DNA from: a virus
Reading direction: 5' to 3' (one strand)
DNA length: 35,805 nucleotides
Virus genome (UHGV): UHGV-0193058
How positions within the stretch are numbered: the stretch's first letter is position 1; each line of letters starts with the position of its first letter. Made by a program: the position numbers and the translations under genes. Under the pieces are notes generated by a model, which worked only from the letters and a program-made list of their open reading frames with translations, was not told the origin of the DNA and made no database searches. Of this stretch, positions 13,375 to 29,668 are shown one piece after another.

Positions 13375-14154
13375 TTGACACAAACACAATATTATACATT
13401 ACTTACAGAAATAGGTAAGGCTGCTATAGCAAATGCTACAGCACTCGGGACTAGAGTTGATTTTGCAAAAATAAAGGTTGGGGATGGTGGTGGAAGTGCA
13501 TATATTCCAACAGAAAATCAAACAGCACTTAAAAATGTGGTGTGGGAAAGCACATTAGAGCATGTTCAAACAGACGAAAAAAATCCTAATTGGGTAGTTA
13601 TCCAAAAAACTATAACAGGAGATACTGGAAACTTTATAATCAGGGAGGTTGGAGTATTTGATTCTAAAGACCAACTTCTCGCAGTATCTAGCTATCCCGA
13701 AACTTATAAACCTGCTCCGGATTCGGGAACAGTAAAAGAAATATTAATTAAAATTATATTAGCTGTGTCTAATGCAGCAAGTATAAATTTAAAAATAGAC
13801 CCAACAGTTGTATTAGCAACTTTAAAAGATATACAAGATTTAGACAATAAAATTGATACAACTAAAACAGAATTAACAAACAACTTAGAAACTGCTAAAA
13901 CAGAGTTAAACAATAAAATAGGTGATACAACACAACTTACTACAACAGATAAAACTAGTCTTGTTGGTGCATTAAATGAGGTAAAAACTAGCGTAGATAG
14001 TATAGAAACAACAGCAGAGAAAACAAGTTATAATAATGCAACAAGTAATCTTGCTGCTACGAATGTGCAAGGGGCGATTGATGAAGTTGTTAGAAAGATA
14101 GAAAAATTTAATGAGGTTAATATATCTATACAAAATGATATGTTACCTATTTAA
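13375..14154 (+). CDS. tail fibre protein (XkdV-like N-terminus)
   Basis: TTG start after GGAGGTGATA. The N-terminus YYTLLTEIGKAAIANATALGT...VGDGGG is typical of the shared fibre N-terminal domain, and the C-terminal half is coiled-coil-like. Confidence 0.55.
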   Translation: MTQTQYYTLLTEIGKAAIANATALGTRVDFAKIKVGDGGGSAYIPTENQTALKNVVWESTLEHVQTDEKNPNWVVIQKTITGDTGNFIIREVGVFDSKDQLLAVSSYPETYKPAPDSGTVKEILIKIILAVSNAASINLKIDPTVVLATLKDIQDLDNKIDTTKTELTNNLETAKTELNNKIGDTTQLTTTDKTSLVGALNEVKTSVDSIETTAEKTSYNNATSNLAATNVQGAIDEVVRKIEKFNEVNISIQNDMLPI

Positions 14155-14171
14155 GAGAGGAAAGTGAGAAA

Positions 14172-15452
14172 ATGCAGTCAGAATGGAATTTTGATTATAC
14201 AGGCGCAGAACAAAACGTTACATTGAAGCCTGGCAAATATAAATTAGAATGCTGGGGTGCTTGTGGAGGAGGCTGGTTTAGTGAATGGACTAAAGGCGCT
14301 AAAGGTGGTTATTCTAAAGCAGAACTTACATTAAAAAAAGAAACTATATTATATGTTTACGCTGGAGAAACTGGATGCCAAAAGTTTGAAAATAGTATTA
14401 ATAACTGGACTGGATTTAATGGAGGGGGAAGAGGTACTAATGCAGGTGCAGACCCTAAGTTTATATTATGTGGTGGAGGTGCTACTGATATAAGACTTAT
14501 TAGAGGAAGTTGGAGTAATGAACAAGGATTACTATCACGTATACTTGTTGCAGGTGGTGCAGGTGCAATTAGCAGTAGTGACTACGGCGTAGGAAATGGT
14601 GGTGGCATGGAAGGTTCAAAAGGATTTGATGGTTCTAATGCTTTTGTCACTGGAGGTACACAGTACCAAGGAGGAATAGGACTTGAAGATAAGTATAATG
14701 GTTCGTTTGGTAGAGCAAGTTCTACAGGAACAGGGCAAGGTGGAGGAGGTGGGTGGTTTGGCGGTGCGGGCGGTCTTAATTATAATGCTGCGGGCGGAAG
14801 TGGTTACGCACTAACTAAAGATAGTTATAAGCCACCTGGATATATACCAACATCTAAGTATTATCTTGATAATGTAGTCATGACTACTGGAGGTAATACT
14901 ACTAAAGCAGATGGTTATGCTAAAATAACATTACTTCAAGCATTACCGTTTTTAACAGTATCATCTTATAACTCAACTACAGCAACATTTAAAGCAGACC
15001 ACACAGACCCCACATTATTAACTAAAATAGAGTGGTTTATTGATGAGAAATTAAAAGAAACTATAACATCAAAGTTAACAATAGAAAAAACAATTAACTA
15101 TACATTAGAAGATAATGCACTACACACGATTAAAATAGTTGTTACAGACAGTTCTAATGCTACAGCAGAGAGAATTTTTACAGTTAGTAAAGGAATTGCA
15201 CCGCTTCCAACTGGCTCATCTAGCGAAGAAGTTACAAACAAATGGAGGGAAATTAAAGATTCATTTAAAACTGGTAAAACAAGTATTATAAATACTTTAG
15301 CATTAAAGAACATAGAGGCAAGCTTGAATAATACACTAGTTGAGTTATCAGAAAAGATAAAGCAGTCTTTTGATAGTTCAGATGCTAGTGTACAAGAGTT
15401 AGAAAATCAATTACTAATTGTAGAAAATGAGAAAGTGGGAGGAATTTTATAA
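14172..15452 (+). CDS. glycine-rich tail fibre / receptor-binding protein
   Basis: 426 aa with long GGxGG-rich tracts (GGGGGWFGGAGG, GGAGAISSSDYGVGNGGG), as in PBSX-like distal fibre proteins. Confidence 0.55.
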   Translation: MQSEWNFDYTGAEQNVTLKPGKYKLECWGACGGGWFSEWTKGAKGGYSKAELTLKKETILYVYAGETGCQKFENSINNWTGFNGGGRGTNAGADPKFILCGGGATDIRLIRGSWSNEQGLLSRILVAGGAGAISSSDYGVGNGGGMEGSKGFDGSNAFVTGGTQYQGGIGLEDKYNGSFGRASSTGTGQGGGGGWFGGAGGLNYNAAGGSGYALTKDSYKPPGYIPTSKYYLDNVVMTTGGNTTKADGYAKITLLQALPFLTVSSYNSTTATFKADHTDPTLLTKIEWFIDEKLKETITSKLTIEKTINYTLEDNALHTIKIVVTDSSNATAERIFTVSKGIAPLPTGSSSEEVTNKWREIKDSFKTGKTSIINTLALKNIEASLNNTLVELSEKIKQSFDSSDASVQELENQLLIVENEKVGGIL

Positions 15453-15634
15453 TGAATATAAATAATGTTGTAGTAAGAATATTGGCGGAGAGAATATTAA
15501 ACAAAGGATTGAACCCTTTAAAAAACAGACCTTTTGAGTTAGATGACGTAACTAACACAGAATACAGAAAAGCCGTAGAGGATTATATAATTAAAGAAAG
15601 TGGAGTAGTAGAAGGAGCAGAACCTACGGCGTAA
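15452..15634 (+). CDS. small XkdX-like protein
   Basis: 60-aa ORF between the fibre genes and the lysis cassette. It is translationally coupled (ATAATG overlap). Confidence 0.4.
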   Translation: MNINNVVVRILAERILNKGLNPLKNRPFELDDVTNTEYRKAVEDYIIKESGVVEGAEPTA

Positions 15635-15648
15635 GGTTCTTTTTTTAT
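15619..15648 (+). terminator. rho-independent terminator closing tail operon
   Basis: AGAACCT acggcgta AGGTTCT stem-loop followed by TTTTTTTATTT. Confidence 0.65.
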
Positions 15649-15670
15649 TTCAATTAATTAGGAGGTTTTC

Positions 15671-15901
15671 ATGAATGAAGAAGTTATAAAAGAAAAAATA
15701 AAACGAAATGAAATAAGAATAAACAGACACAGTGATGAAATAGACGAATTAAAGATAGCAAATATAGAGTCTAAAGCAGAGTTAAAAGCATTGTGTGAGA
15801 ATCTAAATTCACTTACAAGTATGTTGAAGTGGCTGATAGGAACAATGATTACAACACTAATAGGGTTCTTTATATTTGCTATTCAGAGAGGAATATTTTA
15901 A
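15671..15901 (+). CDS. XhlA-like haemolysin/holin-associated membrane protein
   Basis: 76 aa with an N-terminal coiled coil and a single C-terminal TM segment (WLIGTMITTLIGFFIFAI), as in PBSX XhlA. SD AGGAGG. Confidence 0.6.
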   Translation: MNEEVIKEKIKRNEIRINRHSDEIDELKIANIESKAELKALCENLNSLTSMLKWLIGTMITTLIGFFIFAIQRGIF

Positions 15902-15917
15902 ATTAGGAGGATAAAAG

Positions 15918-16175
15918 ATGGATAATTTAATAAGTTTTATACCAGAGCAGTTACTAATTTTAGTAGCTGCTCTTTATGTTATAGGAGCAGGTTGCAAGAA
16001 ATATAAGCAATTAGATAACAAGTATATTCCAGTAGTGTTATTGATACTTGGTATAGGTTTCTCAATATGGATGCTAGGATTAAATCCTAGTGCAGTTTTA
16101 CAGGGAATAATCTGTTGGGGAGTTGCAATAGGTATAAATCAAACTTACAAACAGTTGAAGGAGGAAAATAAATAA
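15918..16175 (+). CDS. phage holin
   Basis: 85 aa with two predicted TM helices and a charged C-terminus, immediately upstream of the amidase. SD AGGAGG. Confidence 0.7.
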   Translation: MDNLISFIPEQLLILVAALYVIGAGCKKYKQLDNKYIPVVLLILGIGFSIWMLGLNPSAVLQGIICWGVAIGINQTYKQLKEENK

Positions 16176-16987
16176 TGAAAATATGTATTACAGTAGGACA
16201 CAGTATTTTAAAAAGTGGTGCATGCACTTCTGCTGATGGGGTAGTTAACGAATACCAATACAATAAATTTCTTGCACCAGTATTAGCAGATACATTTAGA
16301 AAAGAAGGTCATAAGGCAGATGTAATAATATGCCCTGAAAAGCAGTTTAAAACTAAAGCAGAAGAAAAGATTTATAAAATACCTAGAGTTAATAGTGGAG
16401 GATATGATTTACTTATAGAGTTACATTTAAATGCAAGTAACGGTCAAGGAAAAGGTTCAGAAGTTCTATATTATAGTAATAAAGGTTTAGAATATGCAAC
16501 TAGAATATGTAATAAGCTAGGTACAGTATTTAGAAATAGAAGAGCTAAATTAGATAAAGGATTATATATCTTAAATAGTTCAAAGCCTACAGCAGTATTA
16601 ATTGAAAGTTTCTTCTGTGATAATAAAGAAGATTATGAGAAGGCTAAGAAACTTGGATATGAAGGAATGGCTAAGTTAATTGTTGAGGGTGTATTGAATA
16701 AAAATATAGGTGATGAGGGAGTCAAAGAGATGTACAAACATACAATAGTTTATAGTGGAGAAGTTGACAAAATCCCTGCAACTGTAGTTGGTTGGGGGTA
16801 TAATGATGGGAAAATATTGATATGTGATATAAAAGACTACGTACCAGGTCAGACAGAAAATTTATATATTGTTGGTGGTGGAGCATGTGAAAAGATAAGT
16901 TCTATAACAAAAGAACATTATACAATGATAAAAGGTAATGATAGATTTGATACACTTTACAAAGCGTTAGATTTTATTAAGAAATAA
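16175..16987 (+). CDS. N-acetylmuramoyl-L-alanine amidase endolysin (CD27L-like)
   Basis: The N-terminus MKICITVGHSILKSGACTSADGVVNEYQYNKF...ELHLNASNG...ESFFCDNKEDY has amidase_3 features and closely resembles the C. difficile phage CD27L endolysin. The C-terminal domain carries the GNDRFDTLYKALDFI tail. Confidence 0.9.
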   Translation: MKICITVGHSILKSGACTSADGVVNEYQYNKFLAPVLADTFRKEGHKADVIICPEKQFKTKAEEKIYKIPRVNSGGYDLLIELHLNASNGQGKGSEVLYYSNKGLEYATRICNKLGTVFRNRRAKLDKGLYILNSSKPTAVLIESFFCDNKEDYEKAKKLGYEGMAKLIVEGVLNKNIGDEGVKEMYKHTIVYSGEVDKIPATVVGWGYNDGKILICDIKDYVPGQTENLYIVGGGACEKISSITKEHYTMIKGNDRFDTLYKALDFIKK

Positions 16988-16993
16988 GTTTGT

Positions 16994-17037
16994 AGAGAGT
17001 GGTAACTATTTCATCAGTTACCACTCTCTCTTTTTTT
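16994..17037 (+). terminator. strong bidirectional-looking terminator after lysis cassette
   Basis: 14-bp perfect stem AGAGAGTGGTAACT/AGTTACCACTCTCT with an 8-nt loop, followed by TTTTTTT. Confidence 0.8.
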
Positions 17038-17223
17038 ATCCTTTTTGTTATATTCTCTTTCAAGTGCTGTTTTTTTAAAAACCCATGTCGTTCCGAATTT
17101 TTTACAGTCTACACCTTCCACAAATTTTCCGTTTCTTATATTAAGTCTTAACGTACTTTCACCTTTTTTATAAAGTTCACAAGCATCTTTTATAGAGATT
17201 AGTTCCTCAAATACATCTTTCAT
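17014..17223 (-). CDS. HTH DNA-binding protein (excisionase/MerR-like HTH_17)
   Basis: 69 aa. ISIKDACELYKKGESTLRLNIRNGKF...VFKKTALER matches the excisionase-type winged HTH. It has its own promoter (TTGTCT 17 nt TATAAT on the minus strand) and the SD AAAAGGAG. Confidence 0.55.
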   Translation of the reverse strand: MKDVFEELISIKDACELYKKGESTLRLNIRNGKFVEGVDCKKFGTTWVFKKTALEREYNKKDKKRESGN

Positions 17224-17307
17224 TTTAACAACTCCTTTTACTTATATTATAATCGCAAAAGTTTAAAAAGACAAGGGGAAAATAAGCGTAAAAGTTTAAT
17301 AAAAGTG

Positions 17308-17336
17308 TTGACTCAATAAACGTAAACGTTTATAAT
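17308..17336 (+). promoter_or_regulatory. sigma-A promoter P1 (TTGACT-17-TATAAT) with palindromic operator TAAACGTTTA
   Basis: Consensus -35/-10 with exact 17-nt spacing. The palindrome 17323-17332 overlaps the -10 element. Confidence 0.75.
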
Positions 17337-17372
17337 ATAATTAAAGAAAGATAAACAAAGGGGGATATAAAA

Positions 17373-17822
17373 ATGGAAAAATTCATCAGACTTGATTACG
17401 ATAAGGGCTTTAGAGGAAAAGAACATGTAAGTTCTGCAACTGGAGATGGAGAACATTTTGAAGCAGGAATTAGTTGTTATAAAATAAGTAAAGAAAAATG
17501 TGTTGATGCTATAATAAATTTATGTGAATATTGGTTTGAATTTGCAGGTGAATGTCAATTCAAAGATTTCGATATAAATATTTTTGAAGGATGCTATGTA
17601 GGTGAGGGGGCTAGTTACGAAGATTTAGCCACTTGTGAGAAACATTTATATACTGTAGATGGTTCTTTATTCAATGAAGTTTATGACTTATATTATATGC
17701 ATGAAACATACTTAGAAGAAAATGGAAATGTTGAAGAATTAGAAGAAAACTACAAAGATGAATATATAACAACAGAAGAATTTGAAACTAAGATAAAAGA
17801 AATGTTTATAAAATATCTGTAG
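17373..17822 (+). CDS. hypothetical acidic Cys-containing protein (moron)
   Basis: 149-aa ORF with SD AAAGGGGGA, downstream of P1. No recognisable family. Confidence 0.5.
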   Translation: MEKFIRLDYDKGFRGKEHVSSATGDGEHFEAGISCYKISKEKCVDAIINLCEYWFEFAGECQFKDFDINIFEGCYVGEGASYEDLATCEKHLYTVDGSLFNEVYDLYYMHETYLEENGNVEELEENYKDEYITTEEFETKIKEMFIKYL

Positions 17823-17833
17823 GAAGTGAAAAC

Positions 17834-18469
17834 ATGAAAATTGGAGATAAATTTGAAAATCTTACAATACTAGATATAGAACAAAAAAATGGCAGGAAAT
17901 ATTGCTTATGTAAATGTAGTAATTGCAATAATGAAAAATGGATAAGGGCAGATAGTTTAAAAAGAATAAAAGCATGTGGATGCATGAAAAGTAACACACA
18001 GTTTAAACAAAATGATTTAACAGGCAAAAAGTTTGGCAGATTAACAGCAATAAAGAACACTAATAAAAAAGCTAAAAGTGGTCACTATATTTGGGCTTGT
18101 AAGTGTGATTGTGGAAATGAGATTAAGACAGCAGAAAACAATTTAACTACTGGTAGAACTAAATCATGTGGATGCTTGAAAAAGGAATCTAATATAAAAA
18201 ATGCAAAGATAGCGTTAAAAGTACATAAAGAAAAAAATATTATTGATGATACAAATCTATCTATTATAAAAAAGACAGAAGCGTATTCTAATTCAAAAAC
18301 TAAAATTAGAGGCGTTTCTTGGAATAAAGAAAAAAGAAAATACTGTGCACAAATAGAATTTAAGAAAATGCATTATAATCTAGGATACTATGACAACATA
18401 AGAGAAGCAGAAGAAGCATACAAAAAAGCCAAAGAAAAATTCTTAAAAGAAATAAACGGAAAAGTTTAA
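17834..18469 (+). CDS. AP2-domain DNA-binding protein with two N-terminal Cys-rich zinc-ribbon-like modules
   Basis: The C-terminus RGVSWNKEKRKYCAQIEFKKMHYNLGYYDNIREAEEAYKKAKEKF is AP2/ERF-like. The N-terminus has two 45-aa repeats, each with a GxKFxxLT...CxC..C.NE...CGC pattern. Confidence 0.6.
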   Translation: MKIGDKFENLTILDIEQKNGRKYCLCKCSNCNNEKWIRADSLKRIKACGCMKSNTQFKQNDLTGKKFGRLTAIKNTNKKAKSGHYIWACKCDCGNEIKTAENNLTTGRTKSCGCLKKESNIKNAKIALKVHKEKNIIDDTNLSIIKKTEAYSNSKTKIRGVSWNKEKRKYCAQIEFKKMHYNLGYYDNIREAEEAYKKAKEKFLKEINGKV

Positions 18470-18476
18470 AAAACTA

Positions 18477-18505
18477 TTGACTTAATAAACGCAAACGTTT
18501 ATAAT
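18477..18505 (+). promoter_or_regulatory. promoter P2, near-identical copy of P1 cassette
   Basis: TTGACT-17-TATAAT with the AAACGTTT palindrome. The 45-bp block TTGACTyAATAAACGyAAACGTTTATAATATAATTAAAGAAAG is shared with P1. Confidence 0.75.
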
Positions 18506-18545
18506 ATAATTAAAGAAAGAAATAATCAAAAGGAGGATATAAAAA

Positions 18546-18860
18546 ATGAATAAACAAAAAGCTAGAAGATTTTTAAGAGTTATAGATATGAATATAGATA
18601 AAATAGAAGAAGAAGCTATAAAAGCTTTTAAAGAAAGTTGTTTAATCAAAGAGACTAATGATATAAAAATTTATATCGATATACAAGGAAAAGTTGAAGC
18701 GATAGCAGTTCAAACTTGGGCTAAACTTTTAGATGATGACAAAGAAATTAATATTTTCACATTAAATCAAGCACCAACTCATTTAGACGATATGTTTGGA
18801 GAAATTTACCATGTAAATGATTATGAAGAGTTCGAAAAATGGTGTGAAAAAGGAAGATAA
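18546..18860 (+). CDS. hypothetical protein (moron)
   Basis: 104 aa with SD AAAGGAGGA, downstream of P2. Confidence 0.5.
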   Translation: MNKQKARRFLRVIDMNIDKIEEEAIKAFKESCLIKETNDIKIYIDIQGKVEAIAVQTWAKLLDDDKEINIFTLNQAPTHLDDMFGEIYHVNDYEEFEKWCEKGR

Positions 18861-18864
18861 AAGT

Positions 18865-19017
18865 TTGAATTGGGATAGTTATGAAAAATTCAATAAAGAA
18901 AATTTCGAAGAAATCGCTGAAAGAAATATAGATGATAGCTCATCAGCTTTTTTAGAAAAATTACGTGAAGGCATTGAAAATTGTAAACAAGAATTACAAA
19001 ATATAGTTGAAAATTAA
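18865..19017 (+). CDS. small hypothetical protein
   Basis: TTG start 9 nt after AAGGAAG, 50 aa (MNWDSYEKF...). The longer track ORF from 18817 overlaps the previous gene. Confidence 0.3.
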   Translation: MNWDSYEKFNKENFEEIAERNIDDSSSAFLEKLREGIENCKQELQNIVEN

Positions 19018-19052
19018 GTAGAAGAGTATTATTATTAATGTATATAGTATCG

Positions 19053-19284
19053 CTTTTGGTTAACTATAAGGGATTTAAAATATTTTTTAATTTATTTAGA
19101 AATGATATTGTAATAAGAATTTTCAGATTAACTATGAGGGATTTAAATGTCAATTTAATTTATAGAGAAATAATATAATATCAAATTATTTTATATTAAC
19201 TATAAGGGATTTAAATATCAATTTAATCTATATCTATATGATATAATATCACATTATTTTTAGATTAACTATACGGAAATAAAA
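19053..19284 (+). repeat. CRISPR-repeat-like 68-bp tandem array (3 units plus degenerate terminal unit), no cas genes
   Basis: Units start near 19053, 19121, 19189 and 19257. Each has a 29-nt segment TTTTnnnnTTAACTATrAGGGATTTAAAT. Unit 3 (ATTTTATATTAACTAT...) closely resembles the C. difficile type I-B repeat GTTTTATATTAACTAT.... The 39-nt intervening segments are about 80% identical to each other. Confidence 0.6.
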
Positions 19285-19316
19285 GCAGTGTATTCAATAA
19301 ATGCACTGCTTTTTTA
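19284..19316 (+). terminator. intrinsic terminator (convergent: array on +, orf96 on -)
   Basis: AGCAGTG tattcaataaat GCACTGCT followed by TTTTTT. Confidence 0.7.
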
Positions 19317-19327
19317 ATGCTAAAGAT

Positions 19328-19618
19328 TTAATTATTATGATAACTCAATCCTTCGATTAAAAATCCTACGTTCATTGTCATTTCTGCTTCGTCGCTTTGC
19401 AATATTCCTTCCGTAAATTCGCTGTCGCTTGGTAATGATACTTTTTTTCTTGCAACTGCTTCTATGATTGTTTGAAATAGTTTAATTTTCATATCCTTAT
19501 CAAATCCAGCGTATCGCAAAAAATTTACAACTTCCTGTGAAAACTTATTTAATTCAGATTTAGTCATTTTTTCAGATAACTCTTTTCCAATTTGCAAATA
19601 AACATTCATCTTTTCCAA
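19328..19618 (-). CDS. hypothetical protein, last gene of par operon
   Basis: 96 aa with SD AAAAGGGG, downstream of the parA/parG-like genes on the minus strand. Confidence 0.45.
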   Translation of the reverse strand: MEKMNVYLQIGKELSEKMTKSELNKFSQEVVNFLRYAGFDKDMKIKLFQTIIEAVARKKVSLPSDSEFTEGILQSDEAEMTMNVGFLIEGLSYHNN

Positions 19619-19687
19619 CCCCTTTTTAGATTATAGTTAAAACATATTATTTAAACAATATTGATATATTGTAATAATAATATTAAA

Positions 19688-19727
19688 ATATTACTTAAAT
19701 ATTATATATACAATATTTAAGTAATAT
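19688..19727. promoter_or_regulatory. 40-bp perfect palindrome (16-bp arms ATATTACTTAAATATT / AATATTTAAGTAATAT, 8-nt spacer)
   Basis: Read directly from the sequence. It is embedded in the AATATT-repeat intergenic region between the RHH gene and orf96. Confidence 0.6.
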
Positions 19728-19752
19728 CTAAACAATATAAATATAATATTAT

Positions 19753-20085
19753 TTACTTTTTCTTAGTCTTATTTCTTCTATTTCTCTCATTGTATATATT
19801 TAAATTCTCTTCTTTTATAGTGACATCAGATAAAATTTGAGTTAGTATATCACTTAATAATTTACTAACGTCGCTGTTCATATCAATAGAAAAAGATTTT
19901 AATTTGTTTACAAGTTCTTCATCAAGCGTTGCACTCATAGTCACTTTTTTACTTTTCTTATTAACTAAATTATATATGTTTAATGTCTTATTGTCTGTAG
20001 TTGTAGAATCATTTTGTGCGATTGTTCCATTTTTCAAAATCGGTTTTTCCTTATCAACTAAAAGGTCTCTGTTGAAACTTGGCAT
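19753..20085 (-). CDS. ribbon-helix-helix partition protein (ParG/CopG-like)
   Basis: 110 aa with a disordered basic N-terminus and the RHH motif KKVTMSATLDEELVNKLKSFSIDMNSDVSKLLSDILTQ. Its start is fused to the parA stop (TAGATG). Confidence 0.6.
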   Translation of the reverse strand: MPSFNRDLLVDKEKPILKNGTIAQNDSTTTDNKTLNIYNLVNKKSKKVTMSATLDEELVNKLKSFSIDMNSDVSKLLSDILTQILSDVTIKEENLNIYNERNRRNKTKKK

Positions 20086-20895
20086 CTATAACACTCCTTT
20101 TCTTTTCAATTCTTCTAACATATTAGTAAATTCCTGTCTGCTGAAATGTTCTTTAGTTATTTTTGTATAATCTGTTAGAGATAGTTTTTTTAATAGTGCC
20201 TTCTCTATAAACTCATTTTTTCTAATGTATGTATCTAACATAATATCTCTCATATCGTTAAACCCTTCCAGATAAGAATCGAAAGTATCGCTAATTTGAG
20301 TTTTCTTCTTCTCAAATCCAACTAAAATAGTACTTTTTATATTATCCTCCTTATCAAAATAGGTTCTATCAACATCCCAGAGTTGTTTAAATAATTCTGC
20401 TCCTCTTAAAGAAGAAATGTTTTTATCTTGAATTGGAATAATTATACTATCTGCTAAGAAAAGCACATTTTTAGCTGTCAAATCGTAGCGTGGAGATAAA
20501 TCACAGATAATATAATCATACTCACTCAAAGTATTAAAGTTTTGCATGTACCAGCGAGCTAAAAATTTTTCTCTGGCTGGTAAAGGTGATAGCTCTTGTT
20601 CAAATCTAGCCATTTGTATGTCAGAAGGAATTAAGTCTACATTAATGTAATTTTCATTAGGTGACTTGACTATTGCATCATTAGCACTAATCCCTTTTAA
20701 AATATCTAATGTAGTATTATCATTATGATTTATTTCATAAACATATTGTGTTAGATTTGCTTGTACATCTAAGTCCCATAAGAGAATTTTTTTATCTTTA
20801 TCTTTTGCAAGTTCATACGCTGTCATTATAGACGTTGTTGTCTTATAGATACCTCCTTTTATGTTAAAGTACGTAAGTAGCTTTGTATTAGCCAT
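20086..20895 (-). CDS. parA: ParA/Soj-family partition ATPase
   Basis: Deviant Walker A FNIKGGIYKTTTS, ...LLWDLDVQAN, and Walker B-like ICDLSP. ATG 20895 (MANTK...) lies 6 nt after GAGGTGGAG. Confidence 0.8.
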   Translation of the reverse strand: MANTKLLTYFNIKGGIYKTTTSIMTAYELAKDKDKKILLWDLDVQANLTQYVYEINHNDNTTLDILKGISANDAIVKSPNENYINVDLIPSDIQMARFEQELSPLPAREKFLARWYMQNFNTLSEYDYIICDLSPRYDLTAKNVLFLADSIIIPIQDKNISSLRGAELFKQLWDVDRTYFDKEDNIKSTILVGFEKKKTQISDTFDSYLEGFNDMRDIMLDTYIRKNEFIEKALLKKLSLTDYTKITKEHFSRQEFTNMLEELKRKGVL

Positions 20896-20904
20896 TTTCT
20901 CCAC

Positions 20905-21135
20905 CTCATTATTATATTTATAATATTATAATAATATTGTAGTATTGTTTTTATAATATTGCAACAATATATTAATATTGTTAATTACAATATTCAAATA
21001 ATATAAATACAATATTTACATATTGCTTTTACAATACCAATATATTATATTAAAAATACTAAAATATTGTATACACAATACTAAAATAATATTTTTATAA
21101 TATTACAGTATTATTTTTATATTATAGTAAAATTT
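20905..21135. promoter_or_regulatory. par promoter/centromere-like region with at least 8 AATATT / ACAATATT / AATATTGT boxes
   Basis: Repeated CAATATTG-type boxes upstream of parA, for example ...ATATATTAATATTGTTAATTACAATATTCAAATAATATAAATACAATATTTACATATTG.... Similar boxes recur at 19620-19750. Confidence 0.55.
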
Positions 21136-21139
21136 AAAA

Positions 21140-21168
21140 AAGAAGGCTAAGAAAAAAGCAACCTTCTT
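21140..21168 (-). terminator. intrinsic terminator for AbrB-like gene
   Basis: AAGAAGG ...15 nt... CCTTCTT, followed by TTTTTAAATTTT on the minus strand. Confidence 0.6.
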
Positions 21169-21180
21169 TTATAGAAAAAG

Positions 21181-21363
21181 TCATTCATTCTTAGCCTTTT
21201 CAATTATTATCCTGTCGCCCTCGAATGTTGCCGTAACATTAGGGTTTTCTCTTGTTATGCCCATTTCATCAGCCCATTTTTTAGGAACACTCATTCTAGG
21301 AGTAAACGACCCACTCCCACCTTTATGAAAGTTAAACTTTAAATCTCTTTTTTCTTTTTTCAT
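21181..21363 (-). CDS. AbrB/MazE/SpoVT-fold small DNA-binding protein
   Basis: 60 aa. RMSVPKKWADEMGITRENPNVTATFEGDRIIIEK matches the swapped-hairpin AbrB domain. SD GGAG 7 nt upstream. Confidence 0.6.
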   Translation of the reverse strand: MKKEKRDLKFNFHKGGSGSFTPRMSVPKKWADEMGITRENPNVTATFEGDRIIIEKAKNE

Positions 21364-21366
21364 TCA

Positions 21367-21528
21367 TTAGCTCCTTTTTTGCTGTATTACAAAGAAAAGC
21401 AATAATACAACACTAAAAACTAAACCGAGCATGTTGCTTGTACTAGAGTTTAATACTATAGATACTATATTTAAGACTATAGTTATCAAAACTAAAACAA
21501 TGCAAATCTTATAAAATTTATCACTCAT
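21367..21528 (-). CDS. possible small membrane protein (53 aa), no SD
   Basis: MSDKFYKICIVLVLITIVLNIVSIVL...LLLFFVIQQKRS is hydrophobic, but no Shine-Dalgarno precedes it. Doubtful. Confidence 0.2.
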   Translation of the reverse strand: MSDKFYKICIVLVLITIVLNIVSIVLNSSTSNMLGLVFSVVLLLFFVIQQKRS

Positions 21529-21542
21529 GTTTTTTAGAAATG

Positions 21543-21551
21543 TGTTATAAT
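21543..21551 (+). promoter_or_regulatory. extended -10 promoter TGtTATAAT firing antisense across orf42
   Basis: TGTGTTATAAT on the + strand, 50 nt from the orf42 stop codon. The predicted transcript covers the orf42 hairpin, coding region and SD. Confidence 0.45.
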
Positions 21552-21601
21552 ATTAGAAAGAAGTCACCTAGAGAGAAGGGCTATTCCCTCTAGGCTTATC
21601 C

Positions 21602-21730
21602 TTACAGTTCTTTTAAAATTCTTAGAACTGCGAGGATTATGTTAAGTAATAATAGGATGAAGGAGAAAACTTTTTTAACTATGTTAAATTTGTTTTCTCT
21701 TTTCTTTTTACTTCTTTCTAATCTCCCCAT
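21602..21730 (-). CDS. 42-aa toxin-like small membrane protein (basic N-terminus, C-terminal TM)
   Basis: MGRLERSKKKRENKFNIVKKVFSFILLLLNIILAVLRILKEL. Strong SD AAAGGAGGAA 7 nt before the ATG. A minus-strand promoter (TTGTTT 17 nt TATAAT) has the palindrome TGACGGGGCGTCA in its spacer. A hairpin (21567-21594) follows the stop. Confidence 0.5.
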   Translation of the reverse strand: MGRLERSKKKRENKFNIVKKVFSFILLLLNIILAVLRILKEL

Positions 21731-21926
21731 TCCCGTTCCTCCTTTCTTTTATTTTTTTTGCTTTCTCACCTCCTTCTCTATAAATATATTATACTATGAC
21801 GGGGCGTCAAAAACAATAGTTTTCTCCTATTTTTTAAACAAATTTTGGTAAAAAGTAAAGATTTTAGTATATTAGAAATGATATAAATTCGTATCTTTTT
21901 TTAAAAAATGTGATATAATAAAAGCA

Positions 21927-22030
21927 AGGAAATAATGATTTACTTTACACAAGAGTAGCTATTTCCAATGTTTTGAAAAATAACTTATTTTCTTTAACCA
22001 CTCTTATTGGCGTTTGAGTGGTTTTTTATT
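21927..22030 (+). ncRNA. candidate ~100-nt sRNA (extended -10 TGaTATAAT at 21911-21919 to intrinsic terminator 21996-22030)
   Basis: The promoter is TGTGATATAAT. The RNA has an internal 7-bp hairpin GGAAATA...TATTTCC. The terminator is AACCACTC ttattggcgtt GAGTGGTT followed by TTTTTTATTTTTT. No credible ORF is present (the track ORFs here are low-complexity). Confidence 0.35.
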
Positions 22031-22210
22031 TTTTCATATAAGAAAGCTGATATAACACCAGCTAGTATACTCAATAAAAAATTTATCACCATATTGTTCC
22101 ACCTCCTTCCGTTATGGAATTTGGCGTTTAAATATGGAAATAGCCACTCTTACGCTTTTTCAATCACTTTTTTCCTTGCTAAAATTATTATAACATATTT
22201 TGACAACTAA

Positions 22211-22933
22211 CTAATAAACTAATTCATCTTTAAACTTCATTTCGCTTTTACAAGCTTTATAAACTGATGCGCAACTCTTGCAATCTTCTAATGCTCTATG
22301 AGAACTATAATTCAATCCTAATTCTTCGTGCAAAGAAGGCAAAGAATAACTTTTTAGTTTTTTACCCTCATAAGTTCTTATGTACTTTCTTGACAAAGTT
22401 AATGTATCTATAACCTTATTAGTAACCTTTTTATATCCATTCTTATATAATTTATCTAATATAAATTCCATGTCAAAAATAGCGTTATGAGCTATAAGAG
22501 TATAATCACCTATAAAATTCAAAAAATGTGGAAGCACTTCCTCGATTTTTGGAGCATTAACAACGTCTTCGTCTGTTATCCCTGTTATATCAATTATATT
22601 TTTTCTTATGCTTTTGTTTGGCTTTACAAAAGTACTAAAAATTTCACTTGGGACATCCCTTTCAAATTTAATAGCTGCTATCTCGATAATATCTTCTTTG
22701 GAAGCATCTAAACCAGTTGTCTCTACATCAAAGACAATATAATGCTCTAAAACTTTATTTCTAGAATTTGTAAATTTAATAAATTTTTCGTACTCAATTT
22801 CTTTTTGACTTTTAAAAGAACTAATTATATCACTAGAAAGTTCTTTGCTAAAATCATATTGTTTTGCAATATCGAACTCAGTTAGAACTGGTTCTTTTAA
22901 TGTTTTTAAAAATCTTTTTACTGAATTAAACAC
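22211..22933 (-). CDS. DEDDh 3'-5' exonuclease (DnaQ/epsilon-like) with 60-aa N-terminal extension
   Basis: Exo I motif FDVETTGL, Exo II LIAHNAIFDMEF, Exo III YSSHRALEDC (His within the Y-x3-H motif). GTG start 9 nt after AAGGGGG. Confidence 0.8.
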   Translation of the reverse strand: MFNSVKRFLKTLKEPVLTEFDIAKQYDFSKELSSDIISSFKSQKEIEYEKFIKFTNSRNKVLEHYIVFDVETTGLDASKEDIIEIAAIKFERDVPSEIFSTFVKPNKSIRKNIIDITGITDEDVVNAPKIEEVLPHFLNFIGDYTLIAHNAIFDMEFILDKLYKNGYKKVTNKVIDTLTLSRKYIRTYEGKKLKSYSLPSLHEELGLNYSSHRALEDCKSCASVYKACKSEMKFKDELVY

Positions 22934-22959
22934 AAAGTCATTCCCCCTTTACAATTTAA

Positions 22960-22999
22960 TTATAAAAAATAAGACTTAGTTTGTATACTAAGTCTTAGT
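22960..22999 (-). terminator. second intrinsic terminator T2, 7 nt upstream of exonuclease SD
   Basis: TAAGACTTAG tttgtata CTAAGTCTTA is a 10-bp perfect stem, followed on the minus strand by TTTTTTATAATT. Confidence 0.6.
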
Positions 23000-23131
23000 A
23001 AAATTTAACATTTTAAAAAAATATTTCTAAAATTTAATTGATTTTTTAAAACAGTATATTTTTTTATAATCTAAATGTGCTATAATTATAATCATAAAAT
23101 GAGAATAAGCCGATTTTTTTAAATTAGATTT

Positions 23132-23253
23132 TTAAAATACAAAAAAATAAAAGAGGAATACTCACTTGCCGTCAAACAATAGTATTCCTCACCATCAGGG
23201 AAAATGGACCCTTATTTTGGGATACGCAAATATCCTTATTTTCTAATTGCTAT
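23132..23253 (-). ncRNA. candidate leader/sRNA ending at intrinsic terminator T1 upstream of exonuclease gene
   Basis: Minus-strand promoter TTGATT (23288-23283) with a 17-nt spacer to TATAAT (23265-23260). The RNA contains hairpins GGATAnnnnnnTATCC and AGGGnnnnnnnnCCCT. Then a 10-bp perfect stem GAGGAATACT/AGTATTCCTC (23153-23190) is followed on the minus strand by TTTTATTTTTTTG. Confidence 0.45.
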
Positions 23254-23377
23254 ATTCTTATTATAGAGTAAAAAGCAATAGAAATCAAGTTTTTTTAGAG
23301 TATTTTTAATTAGTAAAATTCTACTAAAAAACAGAAAATAGGTTTTATTTTTCCCTGTAAAATAAGGGGGATTTAAA

Positions 23378-25531
23378 ATGAAAAATAATATAAATAAATT
23401 ATTTCTAGAAGAATGCAACGCTGAAAGGGCAGAACATGAAAAAGAAAATTATTCTGAATTTAATAGACATGAAATATATGAAATAAAAAAATATATAGAT
23501 GAAAAACCGCTTGGAATTAGAACAGCTATAGCCAATGCAGATAATGGAGGAAAAACCTTATTTATTGCACCAACAGGAGCAGGAAAAAGTTATAGCTTTA
23601 TAAATACATTAAAAAAATTAAAAACTAAAGCATTATTTATACTTCCTAACGCTTCTAATGTAGAGCAAGCAATGCACGAATACAACATAGCTGGTGCATA
23701 TGATAAGATACCTGCTAAACAAGCTTTAGAGAACAATAATCTAGCAGTAATGACCTGGGACAAGACTGAACAGCTCATAGATGTAGACTTAAGAGAATAC
23801 ATAATCGTAGTTGATGAAATACATCAAACTTATACAGACAGCTATAGAGGGAAAGCAATAAAAAATTTAAACAATATCATGTCTAAGTGTAAAGGAAGAA
23901 TAGATATAACAGCAACACCAACGAAACTAGAATTTGAAATATATGACTACATAATAGAGTACACTCAAAAACAAAAAACAGAATATGATGTCAAGTTATA
24001 TAATGATTTTGATAATAAAAATTTTACAGAAATAATTAATATAATAAATAAGTCAAACAATAGTGCCATGCTAATGAATGATATATCAACTCTTGAGTTC
24101 ATAAGAGATTCAGTAAACAAAAATGCGGGAGTTGTATATGCAGATGGGAAAGAAGAAAATGAGTTGTACAGTAGAATAGTTAAAAATTCAGATATGAAAG
24201 GCTACGAAACGCTTTTAAATACAACAACAATTTTGGCAGGTGTAAATATAAATAACAAAGATATTACAGATATAATTATCGTTAATATAAAAGATGTTGG
24301 GGCTATAAAACAATATGTTGCAAGGTTTAGAAACTTAAAAAAAGCAAATATACACATATTCAATAAATACAAAGAAGAGTGTAATGTCTATAAAATAGAA
24401 TGGTTGGTTGATAAAAATATAGAAAAAGCAACTATCTTAAAAGATGCTTATAACAAAGTATCTAAACATACCCTAATGTTTGAAACGGTTGGGATAAATG
24501 CTACACCAATTCGAATTGATTCAAATGTTTATTACTGTATGAAAGACAATTGTTACAAAGTAGATAAACTGTATATAAAAAGCCAAATTTACAGTAACTA
24601 TTACAACACAAGAACAATACAAAGTTTTAAAGTTTTATTAGAAGAATACTTCGATAATGTTAATATAACTGATGCTAAAGAAATTGAAACAAATGAAAAA
24701 GAATTAAAAGAATATAAAAAAGTTGTAAAAGAAATTAAAGAAGCAACAAGAAATATTTTAAAAGAACATAAAGAAATTTTGGTAGGTTATAGACAGATTA
24801 AAAGCAATTCTAAGAGCTTTTCACTAATGCAGTATCATAATGATATGAAACTAAGTTTAAAAGGGTGCTTAGAGGCTTACAGAGCGCATGATATACATAA
24901 TTTAGTAAAGAAAAGTAAAAGTAATAGTATGTTAGAACTATATTCTAACTATGTGCTAGATAATAAATTTGATTTAGACCTTGCGTGGAAATTAGCAAAT
25001 ACAGAAAATAGAAAGCGTGGAACAATATTTAACAAGATAAATACTTTGATATATAGAGAATTAAAAGAAGAATATCCAGAGTTTTTAAATGATGAACTTA
25101 TTCAAGTTACAGTATTTAATTATATAGACAAATTATTTGGAATTGGAACATCTTATACAAAATTGCATTTACAAGAGTTAAGTGACGATTTAAGAACAAT
25201 TCTAGGAGAAAATTGGAACTTAACAACTGAAAAAATAGGTTGCATATTGAACGAAATTTTTAAAATAGAAAGTAAAAATCATAGATGTGGTACACACTTA
25301 GAAAATATGTTTTTTTATAAAAATATAAATCCTAAGTGTGTACCATGTGAAAAAAATAGAGTTAGAATTTATAAAATCGAAAGATATGTAACTATAGATG
25401 ACATAAAAAAAGATTTAGAATTAGACGAAAAAGATAAGAGTTTAGAACATGCTATAAAACATACAAAAGATAGAATGTTAAATTCTTTAGATGAAGAGGA
25501 AAAACTATTGTTACTAAAAGGTTTTATGTAA
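23378..25531 (+). CDS. SF2 (DExH) helicase-domain protein with ~390-aa Cys-rich C-terminal region of unknown function
   Basis: Walker A IAPTGAGKSY, motif II VVDEIH, motif III ITATPT. The C-terminal half has Cys clusters (CMKDNCYKVD, HRCGTHLENMFFYKNINPKCVPCEKN). SD AAGGGGGA. Confidence 0.7.
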   Translation: MKNNINKLFLEECNAERAEHEKENYSEFNRHEIYEIKKYIDEKPLGIRTAIANADNGGKTLFIAPTGAGKSYSFINTLKKLKTKALFILPNASNVEQAMHEYNIAGAYDKIPAKQALENNNLAVMTWDKTEQLIDVDLREYIIVVDEIHQTYTDSYRGKAIKNLNNIMSKCKGRIDITATPTKLEFEIYDYIIEYTQKQKTEYDVKLYNDFDNKNFTEIINIINKSNNSAMLMNDISTLEFIRDSVNKNAGVVYADGKEENELYSRIVKNSDMKGYETLLNTTTILAGVNINNKDITDIIIVNIKDVGAIKQYVARFRNLKKANIHIFNKYKEECNVYKIEWLVDKNIEKATILKDAYNKVSKHTLMFETVGINATPIRIDSNVYYCMKDNCYKVDKLYIKSQIYSNYYNTRTIQSFKVLLEEYFDNVNITDAKEIETNEKELKEYKKVVKEIKEATRNILKEHKEILVGYRQIKSNSKSFSLMQYHNDMKLSLKGCLEAYRAHDIHNLVKKSKSNSMLELYSNYVLDNKFDLDLAWKLANTENRKRGTIFNKINTLIYRELKEEYPEFLNDELIQVTVFNYIDKLFGIGTSYTKLHLQELSDDLRTILGENWNLTTEKIGCILNEIFKIESKNHRCGTHLENMFFYKNINPKCVPCEKNRVRIYKIERYVTIDDIKKDLELDEKDKSLEHAIKHTKDRMLNSLDEEEKLLLLKGFM

Positions 25532-25645
25532 AAAGTCCAGTATTAGAACATATCTTTTTTATAAAAATATAAATCCCAATACTGGAACCAAAGAAAAAAA
25601 GAATTTGAATTAATAGAACAATTAGAAATTTACATCATAAAAAGG

Positions 25646-25678
25646 CCGTAGGGTTAGGATTTTGACCCTGCGATTTTT
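25646..25678 (+). terminator. intrinsic terminator after helicase gene
   Basis: CGTAGGGT taggattttg ACCCTGCG followed by ATTTTTT. Confidence 0.6.
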
Positions 25679-25888
25679 TGTGTAAGAGAATTCAATATTT
25701 TTGAATTGGAATTATTTCCTAGAGGTAAATTTTGTTAAAAAGTACTATTGTTGCAGTATAAATGTTTAATTATAACAAAGAACCGTACATATGTTCTTGT
25801 AATATTGAACAAGAGGGAGTATAATATTATTTAGAAAATACATTTAAACTATTTGATTTATTACTTTTTAGGGGGGGAGTGGATTTAT

Positions 25889-26025
25889 TTGTTAGAAGAA
25901 GAAAAAGATATTGAAGATGAGTTGATAGAAGAAATAGTTACAATTATTAAAAAACTTGATTTAAATAAAGATAGAAGAACTTTATTGATGATAAAGTGGT
26001 ACATATTAGGAATGTTGAAATAAAA
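25889..26025 (+). CDS. small acidic protein (44 aa), TTG start
   Basis: SD GGGGGGGAGTGG 6 nt before the TTG. It is convergent with the repressor gene and shares the 26021-26053 hairpin. Confidence 0.35.
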
Positions 26026-26053
26026 AAAGAAGAATAGCGATTGCTATTCTTCT
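26021..26053 (-). terminator. terminator for XRE repressor gene (11-bp stem AGAAGAATAGC/GCTATTCTTCT)
   Basis: The hairpin is followed on the minus strand by TTTTTTTA. It overlaps the repressor stop codon. Confidence 0.7.
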
Positions 26054-26434
26054 ATTTCTAGTAAAGAATCAAGCATATTATTAAATAAGGCTAAATATTT
26101 TTTATTTAGTTTAAACATCTTTAATATTAATTCTCTTTCTAATTCATTTTCTGTCTTACTTAACTTCCCAATTAATTGAGCAAATTCTTTATCTGTATCT
26201 TTTGCGCAAAACATATTCCCTATTCCATTCGCTAGCCAATCATATGAAACACTCCAAGCGTCACAAATGTCTTTCAGTGTTCTATTGCTTGCATTTCTTT
26301 TACCATTCTCGATAAGTGATATTGTATTTCTTTTCAGTTTTAATCTTTCAGCAAAATCTTCTTGACTTAATTGCAACTCAATTCTTAATTCCCTTATGCG
26401 TTTGCTTTGAGGGCTTATATTATTCATGTCCATT
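26044..26434 (-). CDS. XRE-family HTH repressor (cI-like)
   Basis: Start moved to MDMNNISPQSK... (SD GGAGGT at 26441-26445). HTH segment IRELRIELQLSQEDFAERLKLKRNTISLIENGKRNAS, with a small C-terminal domain. The N-terminal 21 aa of the track ORF overlap the IS right end. Confidence 0.75.
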
Positions 26435-26449
26435 TTATACCTCCATATT

Positions 26450-26620
26450 GACACACTCCCCATAGCTAAAGCAAGGGGATTCTCGGTGGCTAACACACTT
26501 ATTTATACTTAAACAGTACAACAGAGGTGGTTACAAAGCCAAGCTACTTCGGACGGTGTCTTCGCCACTACTACCTTAAAGTTATTCGCCCACACATGGC
26601 TCAAACGGTAGATACTTTTA
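26450..26620 (-). ncRNA. putative omega-RNA (right-end RNA) scaffold of TnpB
   Basis: A ~150-nt segment immediately 3' of tnpB on the minus strand is markedly more GC-rich and structured than the surrounding DNA (...GGCGAAGACACCGTCCGAAGTAGCTTGGC..., CCCCTTGCTTTAGCTATGGGGG). This is the expected location for the TnpB guide RNA. Confidence 0.45.
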
Positions 26621-27764
26621 AATTTATTGGTTGCTTATGATTTATTCTAAAATCTACTAAACCATATTTATGCTTTTTATTTAAAATATTCCAAGCACCA
26701 ACTATATCTCTATGAGTTTCATAACCACAAGTACAACTATAAGTTCTACCAGTTGGTTTGTGTTTTTTAGAACACTTTGGGCAAGTTTGAGAAGTGTAGT
26801 TTTCTTTAACTAACTTAACTTCAATACCTTGCTCTTTTGCTTTATATTTTATATAGTCCTTTATTCGACCATACTCCATTTGAGATATTTTCTGTCTATT
26901 AACTCTGTTTAATCTTTTCTTTTTCTTAGTATCTTTTTCAACCCCTTTTATATCCCCAAGAACTATTTCACATACCTTCTGCTCTACACAAAAGTCTATA
27001 AACTTTCTAGTTGTTTGATGATATAAATTCATTAACTGATTATCTGTTTTACTTCTTATCTTATTTTTTAATCTCCATAACTTCTTTGATTGTCTACTAC
27101 CTTTTTTACATTTACTTAATCTTTTAGATATATAAGCATACATCTTATTTCTAAATTGTTTAATACTTCTGCCTTCTCTATTAGATAGAATAAGCCCTAC
27201 ACCTTCATTTGTTACACTAGCTATCGAATGTATTTCCCCTAAGTCTACACCTACGGTATTAGTGCCTTTGGCTACAACTCCATTTAATTCATTGTCAAAA
27301 GTGTAGTATAAATAATATCCATTTCGCCATACTATTTCAGCAGTTTTTATATTCTCAACATTAAAATCTAATTCTAAATACCTGCCTTTTGACATTGATA
27401 ATTTTAAGTTGCCTTTAGCATTTCTATTAATAGCACTAGCTTTAAAAGGTATTATATAAAATTTCTTAGTCTTGTATGGATATTTTGCTTTAGTATTACC
27501 TTTTTTTCTTAATTCTGATATAGTCTTTCTATTTGCATCAAATTTATCTGATATAGCTTGAATAGTTTGACTATGAAGATTGTACTTACCTTTGATTAAC
27601 TTTTGTATATCATTCTTTTTAATCCATTGTTTATGTTCAAAATAGTATTCTTTAGATAAGTTAACTATGTAGTTCCAACAGTTAGCACTTTCCATTTGCT
27701 TTTCCCTTACTAATTCAAATTGTGTTCTAGTTAGGTTTAATTTCACTCTATGAGTTTTTATCAT
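26601..27764 (-). CDS. tnpB: TnpB (OrfB) RNA-guided endonuclease-family protein
   Basis: 387 aa. The C-terminal zinc finger CPKCSKKHKPTGRTYSCTCGYETHRD and the RuvC-like region (VGVDLGEIH...) are typical of IS605 OrfB. Confidence 0.85.
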   Translation of the reverse strand: MIKTHRVKLNLTRTQFELVREKQMESANCWNYIVNLSKEYYFEHKQWIKKNDIQKLIKGKYNLHSQTIQAISDKFDANRKTISELRKKGNTKAKYPYKTKKFYIIPFKASAINRNAKGNLKLSMSKGRYLELDFNVENIKTAEIVWRNGYYLYYTFDNELNGVVAKGTNTVGVDLGEIHSIASVTNEGVGLILSNREGRSIKQFRNKMYAYISKRLSKCKKGSRQSKKLWRLKNKIRSKTDNQLMNLYHQTTRKFIDFCVEQKVCEIVLGDIKGVEKDTKKKKRLNRVNRQKISQMEYGRIKDYIKYKAKEQGIEVKLVKENYTSQTCPKCSKKHKPTGRTYSCTCGYETHRDIVGAWNILNKKHKYGLVDFRINHKQPINLKVSTV

Positions 27765-28390: not shown

Positions 28391-28424
28391 TGCATTACAG
28401 GTCAACATAAGAGAGGTGGGCAAG

Positions 28425-29320: not shown

Positions 29321-29321
29321 T

Positions 29322-29666: not shown

Positions 29667-29668
29667 AA

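Follow-up and report, generated by a model that had tools for sequence, protein, structure and literature searches.

UHGV-0193058, a virus genome of 35,805 nucleotides that we analysed over its whole length (referred to here as the window), raises the question of how a prophage carried outside the chromosome could be passed on to both daughter cells. Positions 19,619 to 21,135 hold a parA gene, a small gene listed as hypothetical, and AT-rich repeats on either side of the pair. An earlier note, made from the letters of the DNA alone, had read this locus as a type Ib-like partition module of a plasmid-like prophage, and the genes, repeats and relatives examined here led us to the same reading. 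We consider the 1.5-kb cassette likely to be a ParABS partition system of a type Ib-like kind, by which a ~34-36 kb circular prophage of Clostridioides difficile is kept in both daughter cells.

The parA gene, its partner and the flanking repeats

The parA open reading frame (ORF; 20086-20904) opens with GTG. An ATG at 20895, preceded by AGGTGGAG, is the start annotated in RefSeq relatives and gives a protein of 269 aa, which is named ParA in the annotation of all relatives. The deviant Walker A motif, KGGIYKTT, occupies residues 13-20, and K13, G14, G15 and K18 were invariant across homologues down to 38% identity, as were the Walker A' and B aspartates (D43, D132). The best NCBIfam matches were PrgP, ParA_partition, RepA and SopA, all below their cut-offs and all over the ATPase part only. 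The alignment to type Ia SopA and RepA began only at their residues 105-109, indicating that the window protein is without their N-terminal DNA-binding domain. Among solved structures, Borrelia PF-32 (3e-15) and Soj came nearest. The protein was rejected as a member of the PrgP equivalog (NCBIfam NF041283), scoring 57.2 bits against a curated cut-off of 400, leaving a resemblance only.

The TAG stop of parA directly abuts the ATG of the second gene (TAGATG), which has a GGAG ribosome-binding site 8 nt upstream of that ATG. Both genes lie on the minus strand, in the coupled arrangement that the earlier note had described. The 110-aa product is listed as hypothetical and is a putative centromere-binding protein, new as an annotation, that we accept as a ribbon-helix-helix (RHH) protein at family level only. 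Its close homologues were all from Clostridioides and all unannotated, and a profile built from these homologues alone had no match in the PDB. Behind each of the ParA homologues at 38-65% identity (Paraclostridium, Romboutsia, metagenomes) comes a gene of 102-125 aa that aligns with the partner, and RHH matches came up only once the partners of distant ParA homologues were added to the profile. Family profiles then matched the solved RHH proteins 2kel, 4aai and 9kkd at 7e-5 to 0.3 (2kel at 7e-5) over the predicted strand-helix-helix region, with two of the profiles, A2 and A4, matching solved RHH proteins at 8e-4 and 7e-5. Among 53 diverse family members, 24 matched DUF6364, 15 matched RHH_3 and 8 matched RHH_1, and one homologue (L004) exceeded the Pfam RHH_1 cut-off with 28.4 bits. 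The RHH assignment of the earlier note was therefore borne out for the family, while the window protein alone stayed below threshold and had no Pfam match of its own.

The partner is laid out as a conserved N-terminal peptide, a low-confidence linker, the RHH core (about residues 46-87), an extra helix and a basic tail. The AF2 monomer placed helices at residues 56-69, 73-87 and 92-107 with pLDDT of about 82-85. The N-terminal motif is MPxF..LL..KEKP, in which M1, P2, F4, L8, L9 and K12-P15 were invariant in Clostridioides, and the low-pLDDT linker comes next. By analogy, this conserved N-terminus and linker fit the flexible tail, equipped with a basic residue, with which type Ib partners activate the ParA ATPase (PMC5016525) and may act in the same way.

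Both flanks of the gene pair carried an excess of AATATT, with nine copies in 20905-21140 and six in 19619-19752. Together these are 15 of the 66 copies in the window (23%), within 1% of its length. Dinucleotide shuffles of each region gave expected counts of 1.9 upstream and 1.2 downstream, and none of 1000 reached the observed number. The earlier note had named longer boxes, with at least eight upstream of parA. The AATATT core held up on both sides, whereas the exact 8-mers were fewer, with ACAATATT found twice upstream and twice downstream, AATATTGT three times upstream only and CAATATTG once downstream only. The boxes were phased at 11 and 22 bp, with autocorrelation peaks at lags of 11, 22, 33 and 44 and depletion at lags of 10 and 12. 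In the upstream region lag 11 had a z of 3.5 and lag 22 a z of 6.6, matched by none of 1000 shuffles, and in the downstream region lags 11, 22 and 33 had z of 3.8, 3.6 and 4.9; lags 11, 22 and 33 were significant in both. As the boxes align in rows of 11 and the autocorrelation peaks agree, we took the unit to be 11 bp, made of an AATATT core (often CAATATT or AATATTG) plus a spacer. The two phased arrays are the predicted centromere, also new as an annotation. phiCDHM13 retains only the proximal half of the upstream array, to window position 21013, and phiCDHM11 and phiCDHM14 are likewise without the distal half.

The cassette matches the definition of type Ib systems (PMC5016525). Its ParA is small and Walker-type, carries a deviant Walker A motif (KGGxxK[ST]) and is without an N-terminal helix-turn-helix domain. 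The partner, small as well and recognised as RHH at family level, would bind the centromere, and the operon is preceded by repeats upstream, a further array lying downstream.

Within the downstream array lies the perfect palindrome that the earlier note had reported, found exact; just one other perfect inverted repeat in the window has arms as long as 12 nt or longer. As RNA on the par transcript it would fold into a hairpin of -20.2 kcal/mol (z -4.2) followed by a U-rich tract. Because it combines four inverted boxes with such a hairpin, it could be a binding site, a weak terminator or both. A second hairpin, beyond the upstream array, is predicted to terminate the upstream AbrB-like gene and to insulate the par promoter region; a strict terminator scan of 19200-21400 found none, and this hairpin failed the scan. 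The same-strand neighbour orf96 was considered as a par component and rejected. Its homologues occur in integrated prophages that have no par genes (L037, L044), and it is missing or in the opposite orientation in two variants of the cassette (L010, L012), so that orf96 is probably not part of the system.

Table 1. Features of the par locus and the recombinase gene, in window coordinates
Feature	Position	Strand	Description and basis
parA	20086-20895	-	269-aa deviant Walker A ATPase, no N-terminal helix-turn-helix domain; Pfam AAA_31 4.5e-33
parB-like putative centromere-binding protein, 110 aa	19753-20085	-	family profiles, AF2 monomer
Upstream centromere-like and operator array	20905-21135		~20 phased 11-bp units, AATATT / CAATA / TATTG core, 11% GC
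Downstream centromere-like array	19630-19752		~11 phased units, 11% GC
Perfect 16+8+16 palindrome	19688-19727		arms ATATTACTTAAATATT-8-AATATTTAAGTAATAT, exact, 40 bp; four boxes in inverted arrangement
Promoter-like TTGCAA-17-TACAAT	20936-20964	-	inside upstream array, ~40 nt upstream of parA ATG; consensus scan, 9/12 matches
Hairpin and T-run	21140-21175	-	AAGAAGG...CCTTCTTTTTT; RNA fold -11.7 kcal/mol, z -2.7
orf96	19328-19618	-	same-strand neighbour; no family match
Tyrosine recombinase, 186 aa, catalytic domain only	32392-32952	+	Pfam Phage_integrase 1.3e-21, profile positions 14-170 of 172

The same cassette, both arrays included, was found at 95-99.9% nucleotide identity in phiCD38-2, phiCD111, phiCD146, phiCD506, JD032 and phiCDHM11/13/14. 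More divergent Clostridioides variants (L010-L012, partner 65-72% identical) had boxes phased at 11/22 bp on both sides and a downstream palindrome at the same place; in L011 the palindrome sequence differs and the boxes shift to AATAATG. Simple co-variation of protein and box was not seen within Clostridioides, as the RHH strand KKVTMSATLD was invariant despite the AATAATG boxes of L011. Further members of the ParA-RHH family came from Peptostreptococcaceae plasmids and metagenomes. In L066 (1430-1495) six 11-bp TTAGATATAT units stood in tandem immediately ahead of parA, L006 (4290-4515) had TAATGTA/TACATTA boxes at 11 bp on both sides, and L079 (3683-3886) and L075 (3642-3800) had 12-bp arrays downstream in DNA of 9-10% GC. 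Distant parA-RHH pairs thus keep the layout with different boxes. Homology of the window with integrated prophages that have no par genes stops at 19590, the edge of the downstream array, and homology with phiCDHM13 stops at 21013, boundaries by which the cassette is a discrete mosaic unit.

From these features we infer a model in which dimers of the 110-aa RHH protein would bind the AATATT-core boxes. With a box at intervals of 11 bp, close to one turn of the helix, the dimers would all come to lie on the same side of the DNA and build partition complexes on the two arrays flanking the operon (about 20 boxes upstream and about 11 downstream, including the four in the palindrome). The conserved N-terminal peptide of the partner would stimulate the ATPase of nucleoid-bound ParA-ATP, and the resulting ParA gradient would space plasmid copies apart and so stabilise the prophage. 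The upstream array overlaps the promoter-like sequence, suggesting that the same RHH protein probably represses parAB. A small tyrosine recombinase encoded elsewhere in the window would more likely resolve plasmid multimers than integrate the phage.

Identity and carriage of the element

The window is a complete closed genome of 35.8 kb, with the portal gene at its start and the large terminase gene before its end. When the end was joined to the start, the joint was 100% identical to a contiguous stretch of phiCDHM13 (1266-2065), and no host DNA was present at the closure; the earlier note had also taken the window to close on itself. Positions 1-21013 were 99.4% identical to the isolated phage phiCDHM13, and about 69% of 21000-35805, up to about 33,680, was 99% identical to phiCD506. 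By alignment, then, the genome is a mosaic of phiCDHM13 and phiCD506. A complete tailed-phage gene set, with terminase, portal, capsid, sheath, baseplate and lysis genes, is present in relatives. phiCDHM13 is classified as Sherbrookevirus CDHM13, and window identity to members of that genus was 94-99%. The window also shares the other marks of the genus, namely a genome of ~31-36 kb together with genes for ParA as well as a Clp protease (the latter at 1161-1898, by homology). On these sequence features the element is a small C. difficile myovirus of the genus Sherbrookevirus (phiMMP04-like).

Relatives of the element were found mostly as plasmids or on contigs of phage size. Twenty-four C. difficile plasmid records matched the cassette region, and 21 of them, records of closed circular plasmids of 32-42 kb, carried most of it at at least 95% identity; the DSM 28521 plasmid was checked and is circular. 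The best plasmid match to the window was CP132140 (98%), and in closed genomes the element is entered as a circular replicon of its own. The exact ParA protein was present in 2139 assembly blocks, and of the 1158 whose longest contig was at least 20 kb, 1134 (98%) fell in the 20-50 kb class. In representative genomes of other species no member of the ParA-RHH family was on a contig above 145 kb, and three were on named plasmids of 21-22 kb. Integrated prophages beside the pst operon (L037, L044) share window positions 8548-19590 (tail, lysis and accessory genes) without the cassette, so that the cassette is present in plasmid-state phages and not in integrated relatives that share neighbouring modules. 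An autonomous circular replicon is therefore documented for near-identical relatives; the window itself shows closure without host DNA only.

Published work on the group points the same way. The first C. difficile phage for which persistence as a circular plasmid was shown, in 2011, is phiCD38-2, as recounted in a review (PMC6127314), and its 1.9-kb parA region was proposed as plasmid-derived. An attempted gene deletion in phiCD38-2 failed, and its authors suspected, as a possible reason, several copies of the episome (PMC10732046). In 2015 ParA and the Clp protease were proposed as the genetic signature of phiMMP04-like small myoviruses, the role of ParA then being called unknown (PMC4452919). 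The phiCD506, phiCDHM14 and phiCD111 prophages were reported in 2023 as independent plasmids (PMC10778935), and the 33,670-bp extrachromosomal element of strain MA_1, which is CP132140, releases phage particles (PMC10993401). Together the plasmid records, the contig sizes of ParA, the release of phage by CP132140 and the integrated relatives without par support the view that the element belongs to a group maintained as circular plasmid prophages. The plasmid-like prophage proposed in the earlier note thus gained support. Its remark that this lifestyle would be unusual for the myovirus type was mistaken, because the ParA signature and the episomal phiCD506 and phiCDHM14 had already been published.

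The tyrosine recombinase gene lies away from the cassette (Table 1). Its best NCBIfam matches were XerA, XerC and XerD, below their cut-offs. The protein has no N-terminal DNA-binding domain, and candidate catalytic residues were visible by eye in its translation. Multimer resolvase is more likely than integrase as the role of this candidate. At 33092-33131, 140 bp downstream of the recombinase gene, a 17-nt inverted repeat surrounds a spacer of 6 nt (ATACGAACTATATTTAA-6-TTTAATAATGTTCGTAT) and is a candidate lox/dif-like resolution site. The earlier note had called this protein the only recombinase of the genome, which did not hold, as a tnpA-tnpB pair is also present at 26601-28171. The pair belongs to an IS200/IS605 element at 26448-28289, beside the repressor gene, with tnpA (27761-28171) and tnpB (26601-27764) on the minus strand. 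The insertion is missing from near-identical relatives, which jump from window position 26447 to 28290.

Further observations concern the neighbourhood of the cassette. phages of the phiCDHM11/13/14 type and many contigs drop homology at 21013, inside the upstream array, and resume it at 21868, a stretch that holds the distal array, an AbrB/MazE-like gene of 60 aa and two small hydrophobic ORFs. These genes, at 21181-21730 between par and the exonuclease gene, encode the 60-aa protein, which matches Pfam MazE_antitoxin below threshold (E 0.0055), and two hydrophobic peptides (53 and 42 aa), and correspond to phiCD38-2 gp31-gp32. The next gene of phiCD38-2, gp33, has been reported as a type I toxin. 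On the other side of the cassette, four 29-nt repeats spaced 68-69 bp apart lie at 19051-19284, where they immediately follow homologues of phiCDHM13 gp26-gp29, a putative anti-CRISPR locus (window 17373-19017; PMC10732046). The copy at 19188-19216 (minus strand) matched Rfam CRISPR-DR14 across all 29 positions, below threshold (30.8 vs 45 bits). The spacers between the repeats resemble one another, indicating that this is not an ordinary CRISPR array, and the repeats could be a mimic of CRISPR repeats.

Weighing the partition reading against its rivals

Several results weigh against a partition cassette built on an RHH protein. Searches with the single sequence of the partner against Pfam, NCBIfam and PDB gave nothing significant. 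Two AF2 models of the partner had an overall pLDDT of 63-65 and left the beta-strand region (residues 43-51) unmodelled, as would be expected of a ribbon that forms only in an obligate dimer, and Foldseek with the model ranked CopG, StnY and Arc first at E of at least 0.9, which is not significant. The promoter-like sequence is a candidate by consensus match only, in DNA of 11% GC. Paraclostridium homologues had a similar palindrome on each side and no clear phased array, showing that the arrays are not universal in the family. Finally, the exact ParA was present in 24 assemblies with contigs above 50 kb, and some assemblies put ParA-bearing copies on contigs of 0.2-4.3 Mb, among them four of 278-930 kb (L016, L017, L020, L022).

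These long contigs bear on the possibility that the phage is normally integrative, with the 186-aa recombinase as its integrase, the plasmid forms as excised or replicating phage, and par mattering transiently or not at all. The recombinase has a complete catalytic domain and the authors of the JD032 study speculated on integration, while the absence of an N-terminal DNA-binding domain, the predominance of 20-50 kb contigs and the separate circular replicons in closed genomes argue for a plasmid. The sole record above 1 Mb with the exact ParA, that of strain Z31 (4.3 Mb), is an Ion Torrent reference-guided super-scaffold, and an 81-kb contig is a concatemer, its NlpC/P60 tail gene being present in two copies. 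FUQP01000002.1 (L038) switches into the tail module of another prophage, in the region shared with integrated myoviruses. The whole baseplate, tail-fibre, lysis and accessory module of the window (8548-19590) is 88-98% shared with the integrated larger myoviruses phiCD119, phiCDHM19, L032, L034, L037 and L044, which is probably why chimeric contigs occur in which plasmid-phage and chromosomal DNA are joined. A further case bearing on integration is the complete chromosome CP149713.1, which at 2.86-2.90 Mb (L027 17262/17263, L046 1-3600) has a near-identical rearranged copy that still encodes ParA and the RHH partner. In window coordinates the order there is 9190-11569 inverted (95% identical), 1.2 kb of other prophage DNA, 11419-35805 and then 1-9152, which adjoins cwlD-rpsI-rplM. 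The break in this copy, at 9152, falls within the LysM tail gene and lies 23 kb away from the recombinase gene; the copy is without 9153-9189 and had no att-like repeat at its ends. It reflects either a genuine insertion, illegitimate or mediated by a prophage, or an error of assembly. The earlier note had named an integrated copy flanked by att repeats as a finding that would speak against a plasmid prophage, and no such repeats were present at the chromosomal joins inspected, which were artefactual or rearranged. We therefore judge a normally integrative phage improbable, though the element may enter the chromosome by other routes.

The repeats could also be read as iterons of a plasmid replication origin that are bound by an initiator, and not, or not only, as a centromere. 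DNA of 11% GC with helically phased repeats does resemble iteron origins, and the origin is not mapped in this phage group; GC skew points to no alternative location, because it follows gene orientation and says nothing about the origin. The arrays have no Rep-type initiator beside them, their neighbours being parA, the RHH gene, the AbrB-like peptide and small ORFs. They flank parA-RHH pairs in unrelated elements, with box sequences that differ where the partner proteins differ, and, as type Ib systems also have it, the upstream array comes immediately before the ribosome-binding site of parA. phiCDHM13 is viable despite missing half of the upstream array. An iteron origin, in place of the centromere or alongside it, seems to us quite improbable. 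Hargreaves and Clokie, in proposing the phiMMP04-like genus, raised another role, because ParA lies behind the lysis module and resembles a protein of C. sordellii whose annotation is that of a Spo0J regulator, and the solved Soj proteins are indeed among the nearest structures. ParA would then be a lysogenic-conversion factor, a Soj-like regulator of host sporulation or chromosome segregation, and the repeats only operators of a small repressor. The C. sordellii-type homologue, however, is itself in a parA-RHH pair on a 58-kb contig, and in representative genomes no member of the family was on a contig of chromosome size. The roughly 31 phased boxes of the two arrays far exceed the needs of an operator, and the presence of the cassette tracks the plasmid state. 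We regard such a regulator as very improbable.

A partition cassette of the type Ib kind is thus the reading that we retain. A bolder extension of it would make the cassette (~19600-21013/21135, bounded by its own arrays) a portable lifestyle module, by whose acquisition integrative myoviruses and siphoviruses of C. difficile would become plasmid prophages, with the two-array, one-face (11-bp) RHH centromere as a distinct type Ib subtype and with shared boxes making Sherbrookevirus and Leicestervirus prophages mutually incompatible. We offer this extension as speculation and think it somewhat unlikely as a whole.

As the plasmid lifestyle of the group is already published, the gain made here is mainly the annotation of the partner and the arrays. 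In dozens of records of C. difficile phages and plasmids, the hypothetical protein beside ParA gains a predicted role as a centromere-binding partner. The arrays and the partner are concrete targets for curing or stabilising these episomes, which is relevant to phage engineering, and the assignment helps in predicting incompatibility between co-infecting prophages. It also puts a compact partition cassette on offer for C. difficile vectors.

Comparison with known partition systems

Among type Ib systems, pSM19035 delta/omega/parS of Firmicutes resembles the window cassette in pairing a small Walker-type ParA with an RHH partner. Omega has a flexible N-terminus and is also a repressor, and its centromeres are short contiguous repeats in several separate arrays. 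Omega binds 7-bp heptads, a repeat unit that differs from the 11-bp unit of the window, and delta and omega are transcribed separately, whereas the window genes abut. Searches of solved structures detected no sequence similarity between the partner and omega. In TP228 ParF/ParG/parH, also type Ib, the RHH partner has a disordered N-terminal tail that carries an ATPase-activating residue, as proposed here for the conserved peptide of the window partner. TP228 has a single upstream site region in contrast to the two flanking arrays of the window, its ParF belongs to a different clade, and no sequence-level match to the window cassette was found.

Centromere repeats on both sides of the operon are known from pB171 par2, in the order parC1-parA-parB-parC2 (PMC4270457). 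That system is on a Gram-negative plasmid and its likeness to the window lies in the layout. The par2 repeats are 6 bp. The pCF10 PrgP/PrgO and pAD1 RepB/RepC loci resemble the cassette in their ParA, PrgP being the best NCBIfam model for the window protein (E 1.6e-15). In each, a small partner whose fold is unknown lies downstream, and iteron clusters flank repBC in pAD1. Unlike the window cassette, both loci are coupled to a replication gene (repA/prgW). P1 is the familiar temperate phage kept as a low-copy plasmid by ParABS, with the tyrosine recombinase Cre resolving dimers. P1 partition is type Ia, with a large ParA that has an N-terminal helix-turn-helix and with a helix-turn-helix ParB, whereas the 269-aa ParA of the window matches SopA and RepA over their ATPase part only.

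The closest comparison is with phiCD38-2 (Leicestervirus), whose gp28-gp31 region is the same cassette as that of the window. Only ParA is named there and the partner is hypothetical, as it is in the other records; we found no description of the partner protein or the repeat arrays. Set beside these systems, the cassette is a clearly bounded member of the type Ib class of partition systems, carried by phages of a group already known to be episomal.

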